Shown: one piece after another, positions 235 through 30,196 of the stretch
Numbering within the stretch: position 1 is the stretch's first letter
How the letters are laid out: each line of letters starts with the position of its first letter
Assembly (NCBI GenBank): GCA_964648855.1
Contig: CAZYLT010000002.1
Location: 30,001 to 62,000, forward strand
Length of the DNA stretch: 32,000 nucleotides
Direction of reading: 5' to 3'
From: an uncultured archaeon
GTDB lineage: Archaea > Asgardarchaeota > Thorarchaeia > Thorarchaeales > Thorarchaeaceae
The notes under the pieces: model-generated
Seen by the model: only the letters and a program-made list of their open reading frames with translations
Told to the model about the DNA's origin: nothing
The model's database searches: none
Position numbers and translations under genes: made by a program

Positions 235-480
235 TCCTCTATCTGCACATGCGTCAGAATCCAGCTATCCAAAAACGGCAAGCAGGTGACCGCTTTTATC
301 CCAGGCGACGGCGGCCTCAAGTATATTGACGAACACGACGAGGTCATCATCGAGGGAATCGGTGGAGCCACAGGCGGAGCAATGGGTGATCTGCCGGGTG
401 TCCGGTTCAAAGTGGTGAAGGTAAACGGTGTGGGCTTAGACTCGCTCATCTACGGACGGGCTGAAAAGCCAATCAGGTAG
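235..480 (+). pseudogene. rps12: 5'-truncated 3' part of ribosomal protein uS12 (relic 1)
   Basis: In frame from 250: [76 protein letters not shown], the archaeal uS12 C-terminal half. 235-249 reads SSICT, a degenerate SAIRK. No uS12 N-terminal half upstream within the window. Confidence 0.92.
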
Positions 481-653
481 CCTGGTTATCAATTCAAGTA
501 TTTCATGGCCAGAACAATATGTATGAGCATAAATTCTGTTGTCCGACTATCAGTGTATGAAAAAGTTTCTTGACTGCTTGATAATAGGAGAGTCTCTCTC
601 GCTTCAATATACGAGGAAGTTTAGTTCCCTTAGTAGTTGACATGCATTTGATT

Positions 654-1145
654 TTAACGAGATGTGATGCGTTCTATGATTTTGTGCCCATGGAGTATCA
701 AGCCTAGAAGCGATAGAATACCCCCTGCTATAGTTAAACGGGTATTGAAACCAGTCTTGTCTATTACAATATCCAGCTCGAGATAGTCATCGGTCTTGGC
801 TGTAAAAACAAATGCATAGATATCGGGGGCAGAAATGTCTATCACCTCATTGAAGGATGTCAAATTCTCCTGGACAAGAATCGGTTCAATGATGGAGAGG
901 GACTGGTTCTGCCCCACCGTCTTGTTTGCATCTTCGCCGTAAACAAAGTACAGTGTAAAGCTACCATTTCCGCGCCCGATCTCAAGCTTCACATGAATAT
1001 CCCTATCTGTTGCAAAAATGACTCCGGCCGGGTTTCCCTCTTCCACATGCAGAGTTCTGCTCTCTATGTTCCTTCCGGCAACAATAGATGACAAAAGCGC
1101 AACCAGTCCAATGGTGAGGAGTATTTTTCCAAGTCTTGTGGACAC
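654..1145 (-). CDS. Membrane-anchored hypothetical protein (N- and C-terminal hydrophobic helices), last gene of the ABC operon
   Basis: ORF 654..1187. Likely start GTG at 1145 after a GGAGGTG SD that overlaps the permease end. Two TM segments flank a beta-rich domain. Confidence 0.7.
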   Translation of the reverse strand: MSTRLGKILLTIGLVALLSSIVAGRNIESRTLHVEEGNPAGVIFATDRDIHVKLEIGRGNGSFTLYFVYGEDANKTVGQNQSLSIIEPILVQENLTSFNEVIDISAPDIYAFVFTAKTDDYLELDIVIDKTGFNTRLTIAGGILSLLGLILHGHKIIERITSR

Positions 1146-1149
1146 CCTT

Positions 1150-1929
1150 TCACACCTCCGCTCTTTTGAAGAGATACAGGCTTGCAATGAACAGAGATAT
1201 TGAGAACCCTAATGCTGTAACCAGCCCCAGAAATACATCTCCTGAAGATGCTGCGCCAGGCAGATCCCGGAGGTGTTCTGTCGCCGCCCGTAGTGGATTC
1301 ATAACTGAGAGTAATAGCGGTGACACATCTGGGCTCCCGAGAAAGAGATTCACTATCAACCAAAAACCGATGCCAAAGAGAGATGCAATCGAGAGGCGTT
1401 TGAAGAAGACAGCTATTACTGCACATACTGCCGCCTGAAGTGCAACCGTCACCCACAGGGAAACAAGTGTAAGACTCAACTCGTAAACAGAAGGAAATCC
1501 GGGATATACGGAAACCACGGCAAACAGAAATGCACCTGAGAGCGTCCCAGCTGGTATTAGAATCGCAAACAAAGTTTTGTTCAATAATACTGACGTTCGT
1601 CTGATAGGATAGGTGATTAATGACCTCATGTATCCGTCTTCGAAGGGTTTTGCAATGGAGAGAGCAGCTAGTAAGGGCACTAAGATTGCCAGCCATGATG
1701 AAAAGACTCCCACCCCATAGAAGATTCTACTAGGAATCAATCCATCCAAGATGATGTTGATTCTGTCAATTTGTCCAACCCCAAATGGCATTGCGGTCCA
1801 ACCACCCGTTGTGTTCCAAACGATTACAAAGAAGAAGATGGCAACAAGTCCCTCAAGCATGGGAAACCGATAGGTGATATTGAGTTCAATGCGTGCCAGA
1901 CGAATGACGTTACTCAGTCTGTTCTTCAT
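1150..1929 (-). CDS. ABC-2 type transporter permease
   Basis: About 6 TM helices and motif FEDGYMRSLITYPIRRTSVLLNK typical of ABC-2 permeases. ATGA overlap with the ATPase. Confidence 0.88.
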   Translation of the reverse strand: MKNRLSNVIRLARIELNITYRFPMLEGLVAIFFFVIVWNTTGGWTAMPFGVGQIDRINIILDGLIPSRIFYGVGVFSSWLAILVPLLAALSIAKPFEDGYMRSLITYPIRRTSVLLNKTLFAILIPAGTLSGAFLFAVVSVYPGFPSVYELSLTLVSLWVTVALQAAVCAVIAVFFKRLSIASLFGIGFWLIVNLFLGSPDVSPLLLSVMNPLRAATEHLRDLPGAASSGDVFLGLVTALGFSISLFIASLYLFKRAEV

Positions 1930-2894
1930 GTGATCACATCCCAGAAGGCGTCCTCCAGAGTTGCAGCCCGCTCCATGCTGTATAATTCTACGCTCAACGA
2001 CTGTGCTGTTGCCTGTATCTTGCCACGGACCTTTGTTGAATCACCCGTGACTGTGATTGAGACTGTATTAGGGCCTTGACTTCTCACACTGGTTACGCCT
2101 GTAATCTCCCGTAACTTAGATACTATCTTACTTGAGTCAGAGCACAAGATACGATATCGATTGCCGGTGTGCTTCCTAATGACTTCTAGTGTTTTGCCTT
2201 GCTCGACTATCTTTCCACGATGTATGAAGGCAACATGGGTGCAGGCCTTTTCCAGTTCTGAGAGAATGTGTGATGATATCATAAATGAAACCCCTGATTC
2301 TCTATGCAACTGCACAATCTGGTTCAGAATCTCCTCCCGCCCCGGTACATCCAAATTAGCCGTTGGCTCATCCAAGAAAACCAGTTCTCCATCAGCCGCG
2401 AGGGCGAGAGCAATGCCCATTCGTTGTCGCATCCCTGCTGAGAAGTCACCTATCTTGCGATGGGCAGCATGGCCTAGCCCCACCATGGAGAGCAACCGAT
2501 TAGGATCCTTGTCACTCTCATAGATTCCAATAACTTCAGATAGGTATTGGTGCGCACTCATATGAACAGGTAGGGAAAGATTCTCGTGCAATACGCCGAC
2601 CCGTTTCCGTATCTCCAATGACTTTTTTTGAGCATCAAGGCCGAATACATGAGCCGAGCCAGCAGTTGGTTGGATTAGCCCGAGGAGAATACTGATCAAA
2701 GTGGTTTTTCCTGCTCCATTCGGCCCTATCAATCCAAAGATGCCAGGTTCAATCGCTAGATCCAATCCATCAAGAGCTCTAATGGAACCGAAGTTTTTGA
2801 CAATTCCGTGAATATCTATGAGAATAGTCCCAACCAATGAAGGGTTTTCCTCCTGTTTATCAGTACAAATGAAATCAGTGTCACTCAAATCCAT
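1926..2894 (-). CDS. ABC exporter ATP-binding subunit
   Basis: Walker A GPNGAGKTT, signature FSAGMRQR, Walker B VFLDEPT, H-loop SSH. Confidence 0.95.
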   Translation of the reverse strand: MDLSDTDFICTDKQEENPSLVGTILIDIHGIVKNFGSIRALDGLDLAIEPGIFGLIGPNGAGKTTLISILLGLIQPTAGSAHVFGLDAQKKSLEIRKRVGVLHENLSLPVHMSAHQYLSEVIGIYESDKDPNRLLSMVGLGHAAHRKIGDFSAGMRQRMGIALALAADGELVFLDEPTANLDVPGREEILNQIVQLHRESGVSFMISSHILSELEKACTHVAFIHRGKIVEQGKTLEVIRKHTGNRYRILCSDSSKIVSKLREITGVTSVRSQGPNTVSITVTGDSTKVRGKIQATAQSLSVELYSMERAATLEDAFWDVIT

Positions 2895-2912
2895 GTTACT
2901 TACTCCACGACC

Positions 2913-3467
2913 TCACGGACCTGTTATATGTGCTTCCAAAGTTACATCTCCTACATACCATCCCAAGTAGTAAACAGATACCCTGTACTTTGTATAGACG
3001 TCGTTGTATATATCGTAGTAATAACGATATGTTCCAAGGGACGTCTTTATTTCATCGTATCTAGAATCACCTTGACATCGGAGAGATACAGAGCCCAAAG
3101 TATGACCGGCTATAAGGTCAACATATCCATAGTGTTTCTCTTGATGGAAATAGTTACTGCCTGTTGTATAATATCCCGTCACACTACAATAGAAATACCC
3201 ACTCATTCCACTTGCATCATCGGAATCGAATTTGTTGTCGGCTAATGAGAACTCTTGTGCTGGAATGAACTCAGCATTTATTTCATACAAGAAACTACTG
3301 GGGCCAATGTAATGAGTTTGCGTTATTAGCGATCCATTTACAAGCTGAGCTTCAATAGAAAGCTCAAATTGGTTGTCCTCAGTAATTCTTGTTGAGCCAC
3401 TTAAGTATACAGGAAACACAAATATCGTTAATATGAGAAATGAAAATAGTAGTATTTTGAACCTCAA
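2913..3467 (-). CDS. Secreted Tyr-rich hypothetical protein (paralog of 3616..4182)
   Basis: N-terminal signal/TM peptide. Shares A.F.P..EF...D...D.D..SG.SG.F...VTGYY..G..YF..E.H with the neighbouring gene. Confidence 0.78.
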   Translation of the reverse strand: MRFKILLFSFLILTIFVFPVYLSGSTRITEDNQFELSIEAQLVNGSLITQTHYIGPSSFLYEINAEFIPAQEFSLADNKFDSDDASGMSGYFYCSVTGYYTTGSNYFHQEKHYGYVDLIAGHTLGSVSLRCQGDSRYDEIKTSLGTYRYYYDIYNDVYTKYRVSVYYLGWYVGDVTLEAHITGP

Positions 3468-3615
3468 CTTACTTTCCTCCCAGCATTCTAATTAATGCCT
3501 TAAAAAGGCGTATAGTTGTTTCGCTATATAAATTCACCGAGAGTTTTTGGCTAGACGACAATCAGTAATAGATAAGAAGGGTCATATTGAATGACCCTGT
3601 CCTGTTCGATAGATT

Positions 3616-4182
3616 TCAAGGAGGTTCTACATATGCCAGCAGAAAAATATCTCCAACATAGATGAATCCATAATAGATGTCAGCGCTCATAGTTGTTCGT
3701 GCATAGTCGGTTACTGCGTCATAATAAGTCCAACTGCCCACTTCGTCATATGTATCATCATATTTTCCACTCCTACATCCGACAACGAGATTTGTTGCAC
3801 TATGGCCCGGTGCCAACGACATAACGGCCTCGTGGTATTCCTTGTAAAAGTAATGGTAACCATTTCTATAATAGCCTGTTACAATTACATTGAAGGAACC
3901 TGATGAACCACTTTCTGGATCTTCGTCAGAAGTTGAATCACTAACTATGAATTCTTTATTTGGAGTGAATAGCGCATCCACATAAACTTTGGAAGACTCA
4001 ACTCCCACTGTTTTCAAATTATAATGCATCTTGCCATCATCTATTTTGCAAGAGATAATTATAGAAACTTTCTCAATATGATTATTGCTTTGTACAAAAG
4101 GAAAGACCAAAGATGGCATGATAAAAAAGACAAATACTAGAAGAACTGATTGTTTTTTGGTTAACAGCATCTCTCCCATCAC
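3616..4182 (-). CDS. Secreted Tyr-rich hypothetical protein (paralog of 2913..3467)
   Basis: Signal-like N-terminus, collinear similarity to 2913..3467, AT-rich. Confidence 0.78.
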   Translation of the reverse strand: MMGEMLLTKKQSVLLVFVFFIMPSLVFPFVQSNNHIEKVSIIISCKIDDGKMHYNLKTVGVESSKVYVDALFTPNKEFIVSDSTSDEDPESGSSGSFNVIVTGYYRNGYHYFYKEYHEAVMSLAPGHSATNLVVGCRSGKYDDTYDEVGSWTYYDAVTDYARTTMSADIYYGFIYVGDIFLLAYVEPP

Positions 4183-4848
4183 CTAAACGTGGTTGAAAAC
4201 CACATCACAGTATTCTCCCCCATTATATTTAAACATTTATAGAAATACATTTCCAAATAAAAATTTGATGTAACCTAGATGTGCCGTACAATTGATTAGC
4301 CTTTTTGCATTGTAACAAGACGACATATTCCGACTTTCTTCCAATCTTTATGCTATTAAGAACAAGAGATTGTTAGCAGGTTTTGCTGAATAGCTATGAG
4401 ATAAAATCTCTCAACACCTCTTGACAAGTAATTATATCATAAATATCTCTCATTCTTGGTGGACCTTTATCTTCTGCTCATCAAAAGCAAATCTATTTTC
4501 ATTATACGGTTGATGGTATGACAAAAGGAGAACTCGAATACTTTGAGATACTATCCCTCAATTTACCAACTATGATATCCCTTTGTATCTGGATTATTTT
4601 TTCAATGCATCATAATCTAGGTACTCCAAAGCATATCTATTGACTCAACCTAACTATGCATTTCAGACGTTGAGTTCAATTCCTTTAGAGCTGATATCAA
4701 AGGGGATGATATTCATCGAGTGCATGGGCCCTCGCATCTTGACGATTCTCAACCGCCGTTCTACTGAGCCTTCAATTCTCTCGTACAATAGTTTGATAAT
4801 TTCATGACAGGCACGTTCAAGCTCAGAGGGACTATGCGATGAGATGCG

Positions 4849-5046
4849 AAAAACGGCAAGCAGGTGACTGCTTTCATCCCAGGCGACGGTGGACTAAAGT
4901 ACATAGATGGGCATGATGAAGTCATCATCGAGGGAATCGGTGGAGCAATGGGTGACCTGCCAGGCGTGCGTTTCAAAGTGGTGAAGGTGAACGGCGTCGG
5001 CCTTGAGTCTCTTATCTACGCTAGAGCGGAGAAGCCAATCAGGTAG
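4849..5046 (+). pseudogene. rps12: 5'-truncated 3' part of uS12 (relic 2) with a 12-nt in-frame deletion
   Basis: [65 protein letters not shown]. Homology starts abruptly at 4849. The deletion lies between GGAGC microrepeats. Confidence 0.92.
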
Positions 5047-5073
5047 AAGACCAGATGAATCACAGTTCACCGA

Positions 5074-5379
5074 CTATAGCCTGTCGTAATCTGTTGCGTC
5101 GATGATGATTGCCCGGACAGTGGTTGGCAGGGATTCCTCTGAATCTGGTTGTTGGTACATCATGGAACGTCTTGCCCCACGAGACAGGTAGTCCTCCAGT
5201 TCCTCCTCATTGAATAGGCCCACTTTTACGGCCCGCTTTGTACTACTCTCCTTCAATTTAAGAACCACATTTTCGCCATTCTTTCGCATCTCTTCGACCC
5301 GTCTGACTGCTTCCCGGATCTCTTCCCAGGTTGTATACTCCTTTCCATCAATCGCCTCTTCCACTTTCACTTTGACCAT
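5074..5379 (-). CDS. Small hypothetical protein, TTWEEIRE family (homolog of 14800..15111)
   Basis: 101 aa, aligns over most of its length with 14800..15111. AT-rich TATA-like element about 25-30 nt upstream of the ATG. Confidence 0.82.
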   Translation of the reverse strand: MVKVKVEEAIDGKEYTTWEEIREAVRRVEEMRKNGENVVLKLKESSTKRAVKVGLFNEEELEDYLSRGARRSMMYQQPDSEESLPTTVRAIIIDATDYDRL

Positions 5380-5638
5380 CCTAATCGAGAGTATGAGAAA
5401 GATAATAACTCTCTTTCCCTTTAGTAATCAATTCGCTGGTCCCACAGAAAAAGACCCTGCTAACTAGAGCACATTGAGATCGTATTCTAAAATAATCTGT
5501 AGAAGATACTAAAGCGCGTCGAAAGAATTATTGGTCCCGAAAATTATATCTTATTATCGTTATGAGGATGTGGAATTGGGCGTGATTAAAGATGGCACTC
5601 AGAACGGGCAATGCTCGCTCATTGATGGAGTTGATTGA

Positions 5639-6070
5639 ATGAAGCGAAAAGTGGAAATCTCTGCTGAAGAAATGGAAAAAAGAGCATACGGGTGGCTAGA
5701 GATTTCAGACCTCGGCAAAATACGTCTTCCATCAGAACTCATTCATGACTACAAATTGGAGGTCGGAGAATGGTTTCAAATACAAACAATAAATCAACCC
5801 ATAGGTAAAGCAATCGTTTTGCTTTGGAAAGTCCCAGAAACTGGACCGGGGTCAGAGGTTTATCCATGGGGTGGTTTCCTTTTTCCGGACGAAACTGTGA
5901 TGATACTCCTTCCTTTTATGCTATCACTGAACCTATTTCCGGGCGATAAGCTGCTCGTGATGAAGAAAACTCAAATTGCCGCGATTGATATCATACCGTT
6001 TTGGGCAAGCGGAGTATTCTATGATATTGCCAAAAAATCATCGAATATACCAACGTTTACCTGCCAATGA
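5639..6070 (+). CDS. AbrB/MraZ-like swapped-hairpin DNA-binding protein, probably two repeats
   Basis: YGWLEISDLGKIRLPSELIHDYKLEVGE and a second repeat ..LNLFPGDKLLVMK match the AbrB pattern. Confidence 0.65.
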   Translation: MKRKVEISAEEMEKRAYGWLEISDLGKIRLPSELIHDYKLEVGEWFQIQTINQPIGKAIVLLWKVPETGPGSEVYPWGGFLFPDETVMILLPFMLSLNLFPGDKLLVMKKTQIAAIDIIPFWASGVFYDIAKKSSNIPTFTCQ

Positions 6071-6205
6071 ACGCAGAATACGTGGATGCTAGCACCTTTG
6101 ACAAATTTTCGTTTCCAGTTCATTCCAAAAGCTTTAAACAATGATAGCACCGTGCCGAATTGATACGCTTTGAAATTTAGTACCGAGCTTAACAGTACAT
6201 ATGCG

Positions 6206-6274
6206 GTCGTCAAAACAAACGGCACCACATTAGACTTGTTGATATGCGGCAGAGCCGAGAAGCCAATCAGATAG
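6206..6274 (+). pseudogene. rps12: Degenerate extreme 3' end of uS12 (relic 3), directly abutting rps7
   Basis: [22 protein letters not shown] versus [22 protein letters not shown]. The stop TAG at 6272-6274 overlaps the AGGTG SD of rps7, as in the canonical rps12-rps7 junction. Confidence 0.85.
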
Positions 6275-6283
6275 GTGTTAGAG

Positions 6284-6973
6284 ATGTCAGAAGACGAGAA
6301 GACAGAGGCAGAAACCGAGGTTCCTGAGGAAGAGGATGCCGTTGAGGAAGAGAAAGAACCTGAGAAGCCACATATTCTCCCTGATTTACTATTATTCAAC
6401 AAATGGGACTCTACCGCAGTGGAGTTGAAAGACCCCGGGCTTGTGAGATATATCTCCTTAAAACCCGTGATTATTCCACACACTTCTGGTAGACATGCCC
6501 GAAAACGGTTCCATAAGAGCGATGTTCCCATCGTGGAGCGATTCGTTAACAAACTGTTGAATGCCGGTACTCGGAAAGAGAAGAGGAATCGTGCCGGACG
6601 TAATGCTGGTAAGAAGACAATGATCATCGGTACGTTGAAGCGAGCCTTTGAGATGATTGATTACCGAACAGGACTCAATCCTATCCAAGTACTCGTCACT
6701 GCTATCGAGAATGCTGCTCCAGCAGAGGAGACCACTAGGATATCCTATGGTGGTATGGCTTATCCGCGTTCGGTGGATGTTGCACCGCAGCGAAGGATAG
6801 ACCTAGCACTGAAGTATCTGTCAGTGGCAGCAGCACGAAACTCTCACAAGAGCGCCAAGACTTTTGAGGAGTGCATTGTAGACGAACTACTGCTCGCTTA
6901 CAAGAATGACTCAGGTAGTTTCGCTATCTCCAGAAAGGAAGAGCGCGAGAGAGTGGCACGCTCAGCACGATAA
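6284..6973 (+). CDS. rps7: 30S ribosomal protein uS7, with an acidic N-terminal extension
   Basis: PHTSGRH..RFHKSDVPIVER, NPIQVLVTAIENAAP.EETTRI, VDVAPQRRID, KEERERVARSAR. ATG 6284 is preferred over GTG 6275 by SD spacing. Confidence 0.97.
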   Translation: MSEDEKTEAETEVPEEEDAVEEEKEPEKPHILPDLLLFNKWDSTAVELKDPGLVRYISLKPVIIPHTSGRHARKRFHKSDVPIVERFVNKLLNAGTRKEKRNRAGRNAGKKTMIIGTLKRAFEMIDYRTGLNPIQVLVTAIENAAPAEETTRISYGGMAYPRSVDVAPQRRIDLALKYLSVAAARNSHKSAKTFEECIVDELLLAYKNDSGSFAISRKEERERVARSAR

Positions 6974-7002: not shown

Positions 7003-7119
7003 AATCATAATCTGATTTCTAGTCTATTATCTTAACATACTTTCGATTGTTTATCATAGGGCAAGACGGAGGCAAAAGACGAATAACTATGAACAACTCC
7101 ACGCAGAGCTTGAACTACA

Positions 7120-7656
7120 ATGACTAAACAAGCTCTTATCGCCTATGGAACACGATACGGCTCCACTGCAGAAGTAGCAGAACGCATTGGGGAAGCTCTC
7201 TCCGAAAAAGGTCTGACTGTAACAGTACTCAATACTAAAGAAGAGAGTGCGCCGACAAATCTTATTGATTTTGATCTCGTGATTGTAGGCAGTGGGATCC
7301 TTGCCGGGAGATGGACCAAAGAACCCATTGAGTTTTTGAAAGAAAACAAGAGTGTTCTGGCAGACAAGGATGTTGCTCTCTTTGTAGTATGTGCATATGC
7401 GGCTAATCCAAAAACGCGTGATGACGCCTTCCAGAATTACCTTGTGGATGTTGGAAGGGACCTGGATTCTATTACACCAATCTCTCTAGGATTCTTTGGC
7501 GGAGTCATAGATTTTAGTAAGTACAATTTCGCTGTCAGAGCTCTGATGAAACGGATGGTCAAGTCCACTACGGGCGATGAAGAGGTCTCCGAATTTATGG
7601 ATTTGCGGGACTGGGAGAAAATAGAAAGCTGGGCCAAGTCACTTGTTACAGAATAG
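7120..7656 (+). CDS. Flavodoxin-domain protein (HemG-like)
   Basis: YGTRYGSTAEVAERI FMN-binding loop, DLVIVGSGI, DLRDWEKIESWA. Confidence 0.9.
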   Translation: MTKQALIAYGTRYGSTAEVAERIGEALSEKGLTVTVLNTKEESAPTNLIDFDLVIVGSGILAGRWTKEPIEFLKENKSVLADKDVALFVVCAYAANPKTRDDAFQNYLVDVGRDLDSITPISLGFFGGVIDFSKYNFAVRALMKRMVKSTTGDEEVSEFMDLRDWEKIESWAKSLVTE

Positions 7657-10766: not shown

Positions 10767-12083
10767 TTGAGTAAGAAAGATAAAGAACACCTCAATCTGG
10801 TCGTCATAGGGCACGTCGACCACGGTAAAAGCACTATGACGGGCAGATTGTTGTACGAGACAGGTGCAGTAGACGAGAGGACATTCCAAGCACACAAGGC
10901 TGAAGCTGAGAAACTTGGTCGTCCATCCTGGGCTTGGGCGTTCGCCCTTGACAGGCTTAAAGAAGAACGAGAGCGCGGTCTAACCATTGACATTGCGTTC
11001 TTCAAATTCTTGACTGACAAGTACTACTACACCATTATTGACGCTCCTGGACACAAAGACTTCATTAAGAACATGATTACTGGAGCATCGCAGGCTGACG
11101 TAGCTCTGCTTGTTGTTTCAGCCAAGAAGGGAGAATTTGAGGCTGGAATCGGCCCTGGCGGCCAGACCAAAGAACATGCTTACCTTGCAAAGACACTCGG
11201 TGTCGATAACCTGATTGTGTGTATCAACAAGATGGACGACGAGAGCGTTGATTACAGTGAAGATCGTTACAAAGAGGTCAAGGAAGAGGTAATGGGCTTC
11301 CTGAAGAACATCGGATTCAAGACAGATCAAGTGGAATTCATTCCCACTTCAGCTCTATCCGCTGCTAACCTCAAAGAACAAACTCCTGACTTGACTCCAT
11401 GGTACGAAGGAATCAGCCTTCTTGAGGCCCTGGACACTGTTGAGCTTCCTCCGAAGCCCATCGACAAACCACTGCGAATACCCATCAATGACGTCTACTC
11501 TATCAAGGGCGTTGGTACTGTTCCAGTTGGTCGTGTCGAAACTGGTGTCTTGAAGCCTGGAATGAAAGTCACATTCATGCCTCCCAATAAGACCGGTGAG
11601 GTCAAGACGGTTGAGATGCATCACGAGATGCTCGATGAGGCTGTACCTGGTGACAACATAGGCTTCAATGTGCGCGGAGTTGAACGGAAAGATCTTGGTC
11701 GCGGAGACGTTGCCGGACCTACTGACCAACCACCCACAGTCGCAGCAGACTACACGGGTCAAATCATGGTCATTCAGCATCCGACCGCTATCACTGTTGG
11801 TTACACACCGGTCATTCACGCTCACACTGCCCAGATAGCATGCAGGTTCGACGAGCTCCTGCAGAAGCTGGACCAGAGAACCGGTCAAGTCACACAGGAG
11901 AACCCTGACTTCGTGAAGCGCGGAGAGAGCATGATAGCAAAGCTAGTCCCTCTCAAGCCGATGGTGATAGAGCCGTACAAGGAACTCCCACAGCTCGGAC
12001 GCTTTGCGGTCCGGGATATGGGTATGACCGTCGCAGTCGGTGTCGTGACAAAAGTTACACCTCGCGAACCAAGCAAGAAATAG
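10767..12083 (+). CDS. tuf: Translation elongation factor EF-1 alpha (intact)
   Basis: [55 protein letters not shown]. Confidence 0.99.
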   Translation: MSKKDKEHLNLVVIGHVDHGKSTMTGRLLYETGAVDERTFQAHKAEAEKLGRPSWAWAFALDRLKEERERGLTIDIAFFKFLTDKYYYTIIDAPGHKDFIKNMITGASQADVALLVVSAKKGEFEAGIGPGGQTKEHAYLAKTLGVDNLIVCINKMDDESVDYSEDRYKEVKEEVMGFLKNIGFKTDQVEFIPTSALSAANLKEQTPDLTPWYEGISLLEALDTVELPPKPIDKPLRIPINDVYSIKGVGTVPVGRVETGVLKPGMKVTFMPPNKTGEVKTVEMHHEMLDEAVPGDNIGFNVRGVERKDLGRGDVAGPTDQPPTVAADYTGQIMVIQHPTAITVGYTPVIHAHTAQIACRFDELLQKLDQRTGQVTQENPDFVKRGESMIAKLVPLKPMVIEPYKELPQLGRFAVRDMGMTVAVGVVTKVTPREPSKK

Positions 12084-14562: not shown

Positions 14563-14661
14563 CTCCCACAGTTGGGTCGCTTCGCAGTTCGTGACATGGG
14601 AATGACAGTAGCAGTTGGCGTTGTCACAAAGGTCACTCCTCGTGAGCCAGGCAAGAAATAA
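14563..14661 (+). pseudogene. tuf: EF-1alpha 3'-end relic A (last 32 codons)
   Basis: [32 protein letters not shown]. Not in the ORF track. Followed by hairpin GGGGC-cagagt-GCCCC and a T-rich tract. Confidence 0.93.
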
Positions 14662-14799: not shown

Positions 14800-15111
14800 T
14801 CACGGCTGTAAATCAAGAAACTTGGTACTGGCAATTCGTGCCTCGATTTCGGTGGGTAGTGGTGTTTCAGGGTCATCAGGATTGCGTTTCATACTTCTTC
14901 TGCTTATACCATTCAACCAATCCTGCAATTCCTTCTCATTCAGGATATTGGTGATAATTGCCCGTTTTGAGCTCTTCTCTCCCAACCTGAGCATTACTTC
15001 TTCTCCCTGCTCCCGCCTTTGCTCTACTTCAGCAAGCATCTCGCGTATCTCCTCCCATGTGGTAGCAGTTTCAGAGAAGAACCAGTCCTCATATTCAGGG
15101 TCGTTAAGCAT
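14800..15111 (-). CDS. Small hypothetical protein, TTWEEIRE family (homolog of 5074..5379)
   Basis: TTWEEIRE..VE..R..GE.V.L.L.E.S.KRA......NE.EL.D.L....RRSM....PD..E..LPT...A.I is shared with 5074..5379. Confidence 0.82.
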   Translation of the reverse strand: MLNDPEYEDWFFSETATTWEEIREMLAEVEQRREQGEEVMLRLGEKSSKRAIITNILNEKELQDWLNGISRRSMKRNPDDPETPLPTEIEARIASTKFLDLQP

Positions 15112-15160: not shown

Positions 15161-15567
15161 GAGTCGAACGGAAAAATCTTGGTCGCGGAGACGTGGCTGG
15201 TCCGACCGATAAGCCGCCTACCGTCGCTGCTGATTACACGGGCCAGATCATGGTCATCCAGCATCCAACGGCAATAACCGTGGGATACACTCCCGTTATC
15301 CATGCTCATACAGCCCAGATTGCATGCAGGTTCGATGAGCTTCTACAAAAGCTTGACCAGCGGACTGGTCAGGTCACACAGGAGAACCCTGACTTCGTGA
15401 AGCGCGGAGAGAGCATGATAGCAAAGCTAGTCCCTCTCAAGCCGATGGTGATAGAGCCGTACAAGGAGCTCCCGCAGCTCGGGCGCTTTGCTGTCCGTGA
15501 CATGGGGATGACCGTCGCAGTCGGTGTTGTGACGAAAGTTACACCTCGCGAACCAAGCAAGAAATAG
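15161..15567 (+). pseudogene. tuf: EF-1alpha 3'-end relic B (407 nt, matches 11677-12083)
   Basis: Gap-free alignment with only two amino-acid changes (D>N, Q>K). Followed by its own hairpin and T-rich terminator at 15584-15623. Confidence 0.95.
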
Positions 15568-26060: not shown

Positions 26061-27062
26061 CTAGTATCCTACACTTTCAATAGCTAAAAGTATGTCCTCT
26101 TCTTTTGCATGGACATGTTTGAGGACAGAGTATCTATTGCGCTTATTCATGATTCTAATTGCATGATTGATATCATCTAGAAATAACTTCATGGTCAAAT
26201 CCATTTGATCAAATGTAACGGGCATTCCTTCTTTATTCATGAATTGCAGAATTTCTGTAGAGGAATACTTTCCATAGTCAGCCTGCTCCAAAAAATGGAG
26301 ACTAAATGGAGTTGCGAATGCAACTTGTAAGCCGTGGAGATTATGATTACGTCTGTCCATGGCATGAGAGATTGCATGTTCGGTTCCAGAGCAAGGTCTC
26401 GAACTACCGAATTCACTCATTGCAATACCGGCATCAATAACGGACCTAACGAGCACCTCTAGCGAGCTGTTGGCTAATACTACCTCCAAAGCAGTTTCAA
26501 CGCTGGCATATACATCAGAATCATACTCTTCGTCAGCGTAATCTCTTGCAAGGCGCCACTCAGCAAGACTTGACGCCTTACTGATAATATCTCCCAATCC
26601 TGAGAGTCTAAGCTGGGAAGGAGCATCATCCATAACATCCAGGTCTGCAAGAATCAGCTTGGGTCGTTTACATTTCTCTGAATAGCGATATCCGTTATGC
26701 ATCACGGATGCCACTTCACTGGCTATTCCATCATGAGATGCTGCGGTGGGGATTGATATCCATTCGATGTCGGAATTCCTTGCTATAATCTTCGCTTGAT
26801 CAATACTTCTGCCCCCTCCAAACCCCAAAATAATGTCCGCGTTGACCACATTCTTGGTATTCTTGACGTTGTCATCATCAATGATTAGCCACTCAAGTTT
26901 TTCACCCACAACGGATGAAACTAATTCATTGTACTTTTCATAAAGTAATGTATCCGTTACACAAATTGGTTTACTATACCCTTCAAGTATTCCATCAAGT
27001 CTTTCTATTGCCTCCCTTGCGATGATTACTTCACTGGAACAATTGGAGGTCATGAGTTGCAA
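26061..27062 (-). CDS. egsA: sn-glycerol-1-phosphate dehydrogenase
   Basis: GFGGGRSID, IPTAASHDGIAS, SSRPCSGTEHAISHA, LHGLQV. Confidence 0.92.
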   Translation of the reverse strand: MQLMTSNCSSEVIIAREAIERLDGILEGYSKPICVTDTLLYEKYNELVSSVVGEKLEWLIIDDDNVKNTKNVVNADIILGFGGGRSIDQAKIIARNSDIEWISIPTAASHDGIASEVASVMHNGYRYSEKCKRPKLILADLDVMDDAPSQLRLSGLGDIISKASSLAEWRLARDYADEEYDSDVYASVETALEVVLANSSLEVLVRSVIDAGIAMSEFGSSRPCSGTEHAISHAMDRRNHNLHGLQVAFATPFSLHFLEQADYGKYSSTEILQFMNKEGMPVTFDQMDLTMKLFLDDINHAIRIMNKRNRYSVLKHVHAKEEDILLAIESVGY

Positions 27063-29968: not shown

Positions 29969-30196
29969 ATGATTATTCCAGTTCGGTGCTTTACTTGCGG
30001 CAAAGTTGTTGCCGACAAGTATGAGCAATTCAAACGTGAAGTGCGACAGGGAGAGGACCCAGCAGATGTACTTGACAAGCTAGGCCTCGAGCGTTATTGT
30101 TGTCGTCGGATGCTGTTGTCTCATATAGATATTATTGACAGCTTCATAGCTTTTGCAACCACTGAAGCTCGTGCGGAGGTAAAAGATTTTGATTAG
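29969..30196 (+). CDS. rpoN: RNA polymerase subunit Rpo10 (N)
   Basis: [12 protein letters not shown]...[11 protein letters not shown]. The true start is ATG 29969. Confidence 0.97.

Follow-up and report, generated by a model that had tools for sequence, protein, structure and literature searches.

Displaced 3' ends of rps12 and the serial insertion of accessory units in a genus of Thorarchaeota

In streptococci, integrative and conjugative elements (ICE) and cis-mobilizable elements (CIME) accrete into tandem arrays. At the polymorphic toxin loci of the rearrangement hotspot (Rhs) and contact-dependent inhibition (CDI) types, recombination in the conserved part of the gene, without the help of an integrase, supplies a new 3' end with a small gene beside it, and the previous 3' ends pile up downstream. 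Homology-facilitated illegitimate recombination, described for laboratory transformation of transformable bacteria, relies on one homologous anchor, the other end being joined illegitimately and no enzyme being supplied by an element. For the WHO elements at the FBA1 gene of Torulaspora and Lachancea yeasts, a model has been put forward in which the 3' end of the gene is replaced at each event, the newest unit lies nearest the full gene, the displaced fragments decay and the unit consists of a 'resistant tail + gene', and in which the 5' and 3' parts of the gene, meeting at the cut site, differ sharply in divergence (99% versus 85%; Coughlan et al., 2020; PMC7282813). Archaeal integrated mobile genetic elements (iMGE), whose att sites are given as 29-69 bp or shorter, likewise form tandem arrays at the 3' ends of tRNA or protein genes (PMC6563490), and integrons are reported in Archaea (PMC9668308). 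The present study concerns an array of displaced 3' ends of rps12, the gene of ribosomal protein S12, and a second array at tuf, in the genome of a Candidatus Thorarchaeota archaeon (G000; GenBank GCA_964648855.1), a 3.1-Mb bin that is 94.6% complete. The stretch of DNA analysed, referred to as the window, comprises 32,000 nucleotides (positions 30,001 to 62,000) of its contig C2 (CAZYLT010000002.1).

The junction between rps12 and rps7 has been opened four times in this genome. Each event swapped the 3' third of rps12, from about codon 89, for the tail of a congeneric gene and added behind the new tail a unit made of a small gene module, encoding a protein of 101 amino acids (aa), and cargo, thereby pushing the old tail and the older units toward rps7. 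A whole-genome search with the first relic of the window and the S12 Pfam model gave four rps12-like places, all on one strand of contig C2, to which a very short fifth copy was added by reading the sequence. Following rpoA'', L30e and a NusA-like gene, the series begins with the live rps12 (C2:16705-17148; 147 aa), 12.9 kb upstream of the window, which is full length and colinear with 19 orthologues. It continues with the insert E1 (6.4 kb), the relic rA (C2:23537-23797), E2 (6.4 kb), the relic rB (window 250..480, + strand), E3 (4.4 kb), the relic rC (window 4849..5046, + strand), E4 (1.2 kb), the relic rD (window 6206..6274, + strand) and finally rps7 (window 6275..6973, + strand; Ribosomal_S7, E=1e-36), the ancestral downstream neighbour of rps12.

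The youngest relic, rA, closes E1 and has an open frame. The tail displaced by E2, rB, covers residues 72-147; its homology to the live gene is clear from position 250 and weak over 235-249, and its identity to the tail of the live gene amounts to 83%, with a proportion of synonymous differences (pS) of 0.49 and a ratio of nonsynonymous to synonymous divergence (dN/dS) of 0.03. The tail displaced by E3, rC, starts exactly at a conserved block of 33 nt described below and carries a 12-nt deletion (GGAGCCACAGGC). The oldest tail, rD, is also present in the sister species and is significant in a fixed-register comparison only: it matches the live gene at 25 of the last 30 nt (p=5e-10) and at 23 of 42 nt over -69..-28 (p=2e-4), and in that comparison no similarity to rps12 is detectable upstream of -69. 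Apart from its last ~30 nt, which hold the ribosome-binding region of rps7, rD has decayed. Its TAG stop is immediately followed by the rps7 frame (GTG at 6275), the same abutment as that of rps12 and rps7 in genus g6. The 94 nt upstream of rD (window 6112..6205, + strand) are nearly unchanged in the sister species, with ~4 differences over 94 nt as against 9 over 48 nt inside rD, and probably hold the present rps7 promoter.

Three of these relics had been noticed in a first reading of the letters of the window, hereafter the original prediction, and repeat search and alignment recovered all three independently at the same places. The frame of rB, its relic 1, is intact as claimed, with no change at columns invariant among 20 live genes; the 12-nt deletion attributed to its relic 2, rC, is exact and in frame; and rD, its relic 3, degenerate yet recognizable, does mark the ancestral rps12-rps7 junction. 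The full-length rps12 that it expected upstream was found, and its count of at least three insertions, which is borne out as a serial process with the newest unit nearest the gene, has to be raised to four, rA lying outside the window.

The displaced tails did not arise as decaying copies of the resident gene. All pairs among the live 3' end, rA, rB and rC have pS values of 0.49-0.60 and dN/dS values of 0.014-0.029, whereas the neighbouring genes of G000 and of its sister species (G001, bin TEKIR_14) have pS values of 0.35-0.50; the divergence of the tails thus equals or exceeds that between congeneric species. G001 is the sole close relative of G000 in public collections, and the comparisons within their genus, g1, rest on these two genomes, both of them metagenome bins. 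Between rB and rC, 28.0 synonymous and 4.0 replacement differences were counted over 65 codons by the Nei-Gojobori method, a contrast with a neutral probability of 6e-14. As the tails differ almost solely at synonymous sites, they must have diverged as working genes in different congeneric lineages. Every rps12 copy has the residues QVT / GATGG / VRF, versus QIT / GAMGG / VRW in 18 other Thor genomes, and in a maximum-likelihood tree the live gene, the relics and the live gene of G001 make up one genus-level clade (support 100/99); the genus-specific residues and the single clade identify the donors as relatives within genus g1. The 3' part of the live rps12 is of foreign type, and the gene itself is full length.

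The paucity of changes at invariant columns since displacement indicates that the three younger displacements are recent. At the columns invariant in 20 live genes, rA has two changes, rC two (E99G and G140A) in addition to its deletion, and rD four of 16; proline or glycine changes at such columns occur in both rA and rC. The middle of rD differs between G000 and G001 at 9 of 48 nt, which is about the neutral rate. Decay along the array is thus real in outline only and is not strictly monotonic, rA having two changes and rB none, so that the polarized, chronological decay of the original prediction stands in its general direction but not in its detail. The same prediction had estimated ~25 synonymous versus 3 non-synonymous differences between its relics 1 and 2, close to the present count, and its conclusion that the tails diverged under purifying selection agrees with dN/dS values of 0.01-0.03 rather than ~1. 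It had named as adverse to it a clade of the relics with the resident gene combined with a dN/dS near 1; the clade was found, and the ratio is nowhere near that value.

The order of the insertions can be followed by comparison with related genomes. In genus g6, rps12 directly adjoins rps7, which represents the empty site. G001 lacks E1, and its live rps12 is directly followed by the 101-aa gene and the core of E2. The 3' end of that live gene is 96.8% identical to rA, with nine synonymous and no replacement changes, and the two are sisters in the tree at 98/94. This arrangement is the state expected just before E1 reached the G000 lineage, and serial insertion with the newest unit nearest the live gene is supported. 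Over 4,997 nt, the E2 cores of G000 and G001 (C2:24380-29375 versus G001:C33:141905-146901) share 98.3% identity, as against 82-91% in the flanking core DNA, a contrast that speaks for a foreign origin of the units; being far more alike than its surroundings, this 5-kb accessory block must have been transferred recently between lineages of genus g1. In G001, E2 ends 860 nt earlier than in G000 and is followed by ~25 unmatched nt and then by the point 94 nt upstream of rD, without any relic. The oldest tail, rD, predates the split between G000 and G001.

Duplicates of rps12 and tuf were found in genus g1 only, among the 41 genomes searched for rps12 (G000 and 40 relatives) and the 86 family genomes, G000 included, searched for tuf. 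An exact search with a 20-mer gave 32 matches, none of the g1 type, and a genome search in GTDB for further members of the array returned G001 alone. An assembly artefact was ruled out, as the independent bin G001 has rD and a tuf relic with identical edges, the copies are merely 79-85% identical, and sequence unrelated to rps12 directly adjoins every relic.

The exchange between old and new tails took place at a fixed point. When the live rps12 genes of G000 and G001 are compared, the maximum-likelihood change point in divergence falls at nt 269, identity being 91.4% before and 82.5% after it. This point lies 2 nt past the end of the 33-nt block, AAAAACGGCAAGCAGGTGACTGCTTT(T/C)ATCCCA, which has two variable sites among the five g1 copies (live gene, rA, rB, rC and the G001 gene) and is absent from rD. 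Its codons 0-10 are nearly invariant, whereas the 13 codons that follow are all variable, and its synonymous sites vary in other genera. The 5' edges of the relics fall at rps12 nt 187, 214 and 235, all within 48 nt. The exchange point of the E1 event itself could not be placed within rps12, as it has too few informative sites.

A second array of this kind is anchored on tuf, the gene of EF-1alpha (window 10767..12083, + strand). The live gene is followed by 2.5 kb of cargo, consisting of membrane and secreted protein genes without known family, then by a 3' relic A (window 14563..14661, + strand; 98 nt), a 103-aa paralogue of the 101-aa gene (window 14800..15111, - strand) and a 3' relic B (window 15161..15567, + strand; 411 nt). 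Relic A is 96% identical to the last 98 nt of the live tuf of G001. Over 134 codons, 50 synonymous and two replacement changes separate relic B from the live tail (pS 0.515; proportion of nonsynonymous differences, pN, 0.007). The tuf genes of G000 and G001 are 95.3% identical to nt 910 and 83.0% identical after it (p=3e-12), and the maximum-likelihood change point falls at nt 905, at a distance of 6 nt from the edge of this relic. The 103-aa gene is 46-49% identical to the copies of the rps12 array, and has an orthologue at the same place in G001; the array includes a minimal unit of 0.5 kb begun by a gene of the 101-aa family. G001 has relic B, with the same 5' edge, and the small gene, lacks relic A, and carries different cargo of 4.7 kb (secreted proteins and an ABC-2 module). 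Live and relic tuf share a 90-nt stretch of complete identity, which is to be expected if exchange between the copies continues; no invariant core is common to all four tuf copies. Self-comparison of G000 revealed the layout of full gene, cargo and 3' relic not only at tuf but also at the 23S rRNA 3' end, an ADI-family gene and a TauE gene. The 101-aa gene is absent from these last three arrays.

In the rps12 array, the 101-aa gene module begins every unit. It lies on the - strand, 7-31 nt after the tail, in E2, in E4 and in G001, and on the + strand in E1. The copy of E4, marked by the motif TTWEEIRE (window 5074..5379, - strand), is convergent with rC, lies 27 nt past the rC stop, has no assigned family and is 78% identical to the E1 copy. 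In E3, the left end of the insert holds what remains of the module, 87 bp of its upstream (promoter) region (window 520..606, + strand), the gene itself having been lost. This remnant is 96.5% identical to C2:17188-17274 behind the live rps12, has just these two copies in the genome and is homologous to the region upstream of the 101-aa gene of G001; a structured RNA was considered for it and rejected, its fold z-scores being -0.4 to +0.9. E2 also contains a direct repeat of 112 bp (C2:24083-24194 and 26851-26962; 93% identical) that corresponds to the beginning of the 101-aa gene and the DNA upstream of it. Its second copy, a stub, follows the SBBP gene and points to a composite structure of E2 itself.

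The 101-aa family is very small: an exhaustive profile search of 1.84 billion proteins gave seven representatives. Strong matches come from genus g1 only, and the distant homologues of genus g5 are fixed chromosomal genes beside TFB. The AlphaFold model of the protein has a pLDDT of 83.4 and matches no solved fold above Z 5.4, while Foldseek, VIA-align, ESM Atlas and PDB profile searches gave nothing usable as to function. A match to Imm1, an immunity protein family, was obtained for five of the seven members and remained below threshold (best E=0.0011). The family has no conserved His or Cys, and neither a GIY-YIG nor a PD-(D/E)xK motif can be placed in it. Its profile has no match among metagenome contigs, and virus contigs contain neither the 101-aa gene nor an rps12 tail. 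A 450-aa protein from public metagenomes (P0007) consists of six tandem repeats of ~65 aa starting with THLTWEEL(K/R)EAILEYN, which match the first helix of the 101-aa family only.

The Pfam matches of the other open reading frames (ORFs) in the inserts are restricted to cargo families, namely subtilase, SBBP/TSP3 surface proteins, and ABC-2 permease with its ATPase; small secreted proteins are also encoded. The cargo of E3 (window 654..4182, - strand) comprises a 177-aa membrane protein, an ABC-2 permease (1150-1929), an ABC ATPase (1926-2894) and two paralogous secreted proteins (2913-3467 and 3616-4182). Its ATPase and permease are 47% and 28% identical, respectively, to those of E2; the ABC module recurs on contig C40, following a 23S rRNA relic, and downstream of tuf in G001, protein identities ranging from 28 to 47%. 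At the right end of E3 there is a C-terminal stub of KaiC type (window 4663-4788, - strand; KaiC, E=1e-7), followed by a 45-nt piece of an ABC ATPase gene (window 4802-4846) that adjoins rC and is 91% identical to an internal part of the E2-type ATPase gene in G001. E4 also contains a 143-aa ORF (window 5639..6070, + strand) of no recognisable family.

Three explanations of how the units were joined to rps12 were ranked, with host recombination first, a homing nuclease like that of WHO second and a site-specific integrase third. Host recombination, in which the cell's machinery for homologous recombination would join the units with the conserved gene as anchor and no integrase encoded by an element would take part, is given a little less than an even chance; it is the only reading that calls for no unseen gene. 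DNA of a relative carrying an rps12 tail and a unit would pair with the resident rps12, the incoming molecule being either linear or a circle released from another array by looping out between two of its tails. The 33-nt block, as the sole long stretch of identity, would be the place where the exchange is resolved, and the far side would close either in a tail copy, leaving a relic, or illegitimately, leaving gene fragments or no relic, as in G001. On this account, the use of rps12, tuf and 23S rRNA as anchors would reflect their strong conservation, since only highly conserved genes stay sufficiently identical when relatives diverge. Host recombination accords with the number of anchors, with the gene fragments that precede rC, with the junction of G001 that lacks a relic and with the patches of identity.

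Homology-facilitated illegitimate recombination offers a partial parallel, which may be seen in the gene-fragment junction before rC and the relic-less filler junction in G001. It predicts scattered exchange points, whereas those observed here are fixed in rps12 and tuf, and it is not known as a builder of ordered arrays.

A number of points weigh against host recombination. No recombination step, circle or excision product was observed. The presence of the 101-aa module at every unit start, in either orientation, and in the tuf array as well, is not predicted by passive recombination, and to account for its constancy one must further assume that all units descend from a single founder. The restriction of the arrays to genus g1 is easier to reconcile with an agent peculiar to the lineage than with a host process that is universal, and, both genomes being bins, a mobile element carrying an enzyme could have been left unbinned. 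Statistically, the 33-nt block carries moderate weight, at an estimated ~3e-4 per window before correction for ~60 windows, and a second conserved run in rps12, at codons 45-51, shows that synonymous rates are uneven along the gene. Lastly, a fixed exchange point and a conserved core are equally expected from a site-specific recombinase or a homing nuclease.

Homing in the manner of WHO is somewhat unlikely. In this scheme a nuclease, either the 101-aa protein or an unlinked enzyme, would cut rps12 and tuf alleles at a fixed point, and the break would be repaired from the chromosome of a relative that carries a recoded, cut-resistant tail and a unit, while the old tail would pair with the downstream relic of the donor and end up behind the unit. 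The model of WHO at FBA1 predicts every structural feature seen here (PMC7282813). The likeness extends to the downstream displacement of the previous 3' end together with the earlier units, the newest remaining nearest the gene, the decaying fragments, the sharp break in divergence between the 5' and 3' parts of the live gene, and the lack of an integrase (Coughlan et al., 2020; PMC7282813). Both the newest-nearest array of displaced 3' ends and the sharp break in allele divergence at one position were found, the jumps being located at rps12 nt 269 and tuf nt 905, and the conserved block is followed by 13 consecutive recoded codons. Moreover, at the head of every unit, the 0.5-kb tuf unit included, stands one small gene whose family is tiny and confined to the lineage, and the arrays and the 101-aa family co-occur in genus g1 only. 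A homing nuclease would also account for the constancy of the 101-aa gene and for the restriction to this genus.

The two systems nevertheless differ in several respects. WHO units encode an endonuclease of LAGLIDADG/intein type, for which allele-specific cutting has been shown, whereas the constant gene here specifies a 101-aa protein without recognisable nuclease features: no nuclease family, motif or fold was matched, the Imm1 signal is below threshold, and the distant homologues in genus g5 are fixed chromosomal genes. No HNH gene was found in G000, whose GIY-YIG and TnpB genes lie on other contigs, and the 23S rRNA, ADI and TauE arrays do without the 101-aa gene. In addition, the cargo of the present units amounts to kilobases, their host is an archaeon without known meiosis, and several anchor genes are in use in one genome. 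It is quite unlikely that genus g1 harbors a prokaryotic counterpart of WHO/HO, in which a selfish, recoded and cut-resistant tail, with the 101-aa protein as nuclease or as specificity or antidote subunit, would home into the rps12 and tuf genes of relatives by break-and-copy repair and take cargo along.

Site-specific integration of related elements with a tyrosine or other integrase, in which the 33-nt block would be an att core, the element would carry the rest of rps12 and so restore the gene, and re-use of attL would build the tandem array, is distinctly doubtful. The integrase genes would have been lost later, or else the inserts would be passengers without integrase, moved in trans or in cis as in the accretion of CIMEs. 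Sites in the 3'-distal part of protein genes and tandem arrays built by site re-use are documented for archaeal elements (PMC6563490); the present locus shares with the iMGE arrays the element-borne 3' end that restores the target, the direct repeat that closes each element, the stacking by re-use of the site, and the occurrence of members lacking an integrase. Insertion at the 3' end of a gene with a functional replacement end, as associated with tyrosine recombinases and CIMEs, was indeed found, a conserved core occupies the fixed exchange point in the live gene, rA, rB and rC, and tyrosine recombinases are present in 8 of 15 other genomes of the family.

In contrast with the iMGE arrays, no integrase was found here, the repeats are 200-410 nt of diverged coding sequence in place of short identical att sites, and both the relic edges and the element ends vary. 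Specifically, a six-frame search of G000 gave no match at E<=0.01 to PF00589, PF00239 or PF16795 (tyrosine, serine and SSV-type recombinases), no integrase pseudogene of these three families was found anywhere in G000, and G001 contains no match to PF00589, so that neither genome has even a Xer-type match. No virus contig carries the tail or the 101-aa gene, no core is invariant across the four tuf copies, and the use of at least five different anchor genes within a single genome would call for several integrases or for one of very relaxed specificity. The 5' edges of the relics (nt 187, 214 and 235) also differ from one another, as do the right ends of E2 between the two species. No tRNA genes or Rfam families were found at the junctions.

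In-situ tandem duplication of the rps12 tail and its downstream genes followed by divergence, including a variant in which the relics are expressed and kept by selection, might be suggested by the paralogous cargo of the units (ABC modules, SBBP proteins and 101-aa genes) and by the open frames of rA and rB, but it is highly improbable and is excluded by the dN/dS values and by G001: free duplicates are expected to have a dN/dS near 1, as against 0.01-0.03 at a pS of ~0.55, protein identity among the cargo paralogues is no more than 28-47%, whereas a block in another species matches E2 at 98.3%, the live gene of G001 bears the rA-type tail, rD decays at a neutral rate, and rA and rC have proline or glycine changes at invariant columns.

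Other known systems were considered and rejected. The orphan tip-immunity modules of Rhs/CDI loci resemble the array in the stacking of displaced ends and in the small adjacent gene, with its weak Imm1 signal. There, however, a new tip is a different toxin and the variation is in the protein, whereas all tails here encode the same S12 sequence and differ at synonymous sites alone; displacement of a polymorphic-toxin C terminus does not, therefore, describe this locus. Integrons likewise hold an ordered array of promoter-poor cassettes at one site, the newest by the entry point. No IntI integrase was found by the array, and the separators between cassettes are coding copies of rps12 rather than attC sites, without hairpin potential: their DNA fold z-scores of -1.1 to +0.5 are no better than those of shuffled sequences. 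A casposon is not indicated either, as Cas1 genes occur on contigs C32 and C42 only, no inverted repeats were found at cassette ends and no inverted terminal repeats bounding the inserts were found in the repeat search, and the repeats are gene ends of 70-260 nt.

If host recombination did build these arrays, Asgard archaea would gain accessory genes without an integrase, essential and slowly evolving genes would act as landing pads on which each landing leaves a datable scar, and an array would be a readable chronology of gene acquisition. Chimeric core markers would also be explained, the 3' third of rps12 and tuf having a separate history, which is of relevance to phylogenies based on these genes. 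The route would moreover resemble WHO/HO in yeast, the sole eukaryotic system of this sort that is well studied. A testable question follows, namely whether exchange at the 33-nt block is performed by host recombination or by the 101-aa protein.

Some details of the other anchors may be added. On contig C40 (L062, 1-7250), the 3' end of the 23S rRNA gene, which has an ORF of LAGLIDADG type inside it, is followed by two copies of its last ~60-170 nt and trailer (3354-3455 and 7030-7202). The cargo between these relics includes a third copy of the secreted/ABC-2 module, and a TnpB-like pseudogene with one stop (6719-6946) lies just before the second relic. On contig C1 (L058, 412106-423026), the ADI-family gene has a frameshifted 3' copy, 82% identical, 9.6 kb downstream, and the TauE exporter gene, with its own 3' copy (88% identical), is nested inside this span. 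Upstream of the rps12 array, rpoA'' is interrupted in frame after '...GEPGTQMTLRT' (L009, 4534-5745; C2:9057-14797); the sequence preceding the interruption recurs 5.3 kb upstream as a diverged copy of 231 nt, and the two flank an ORF of >1,400 aa that has no Pfam family.

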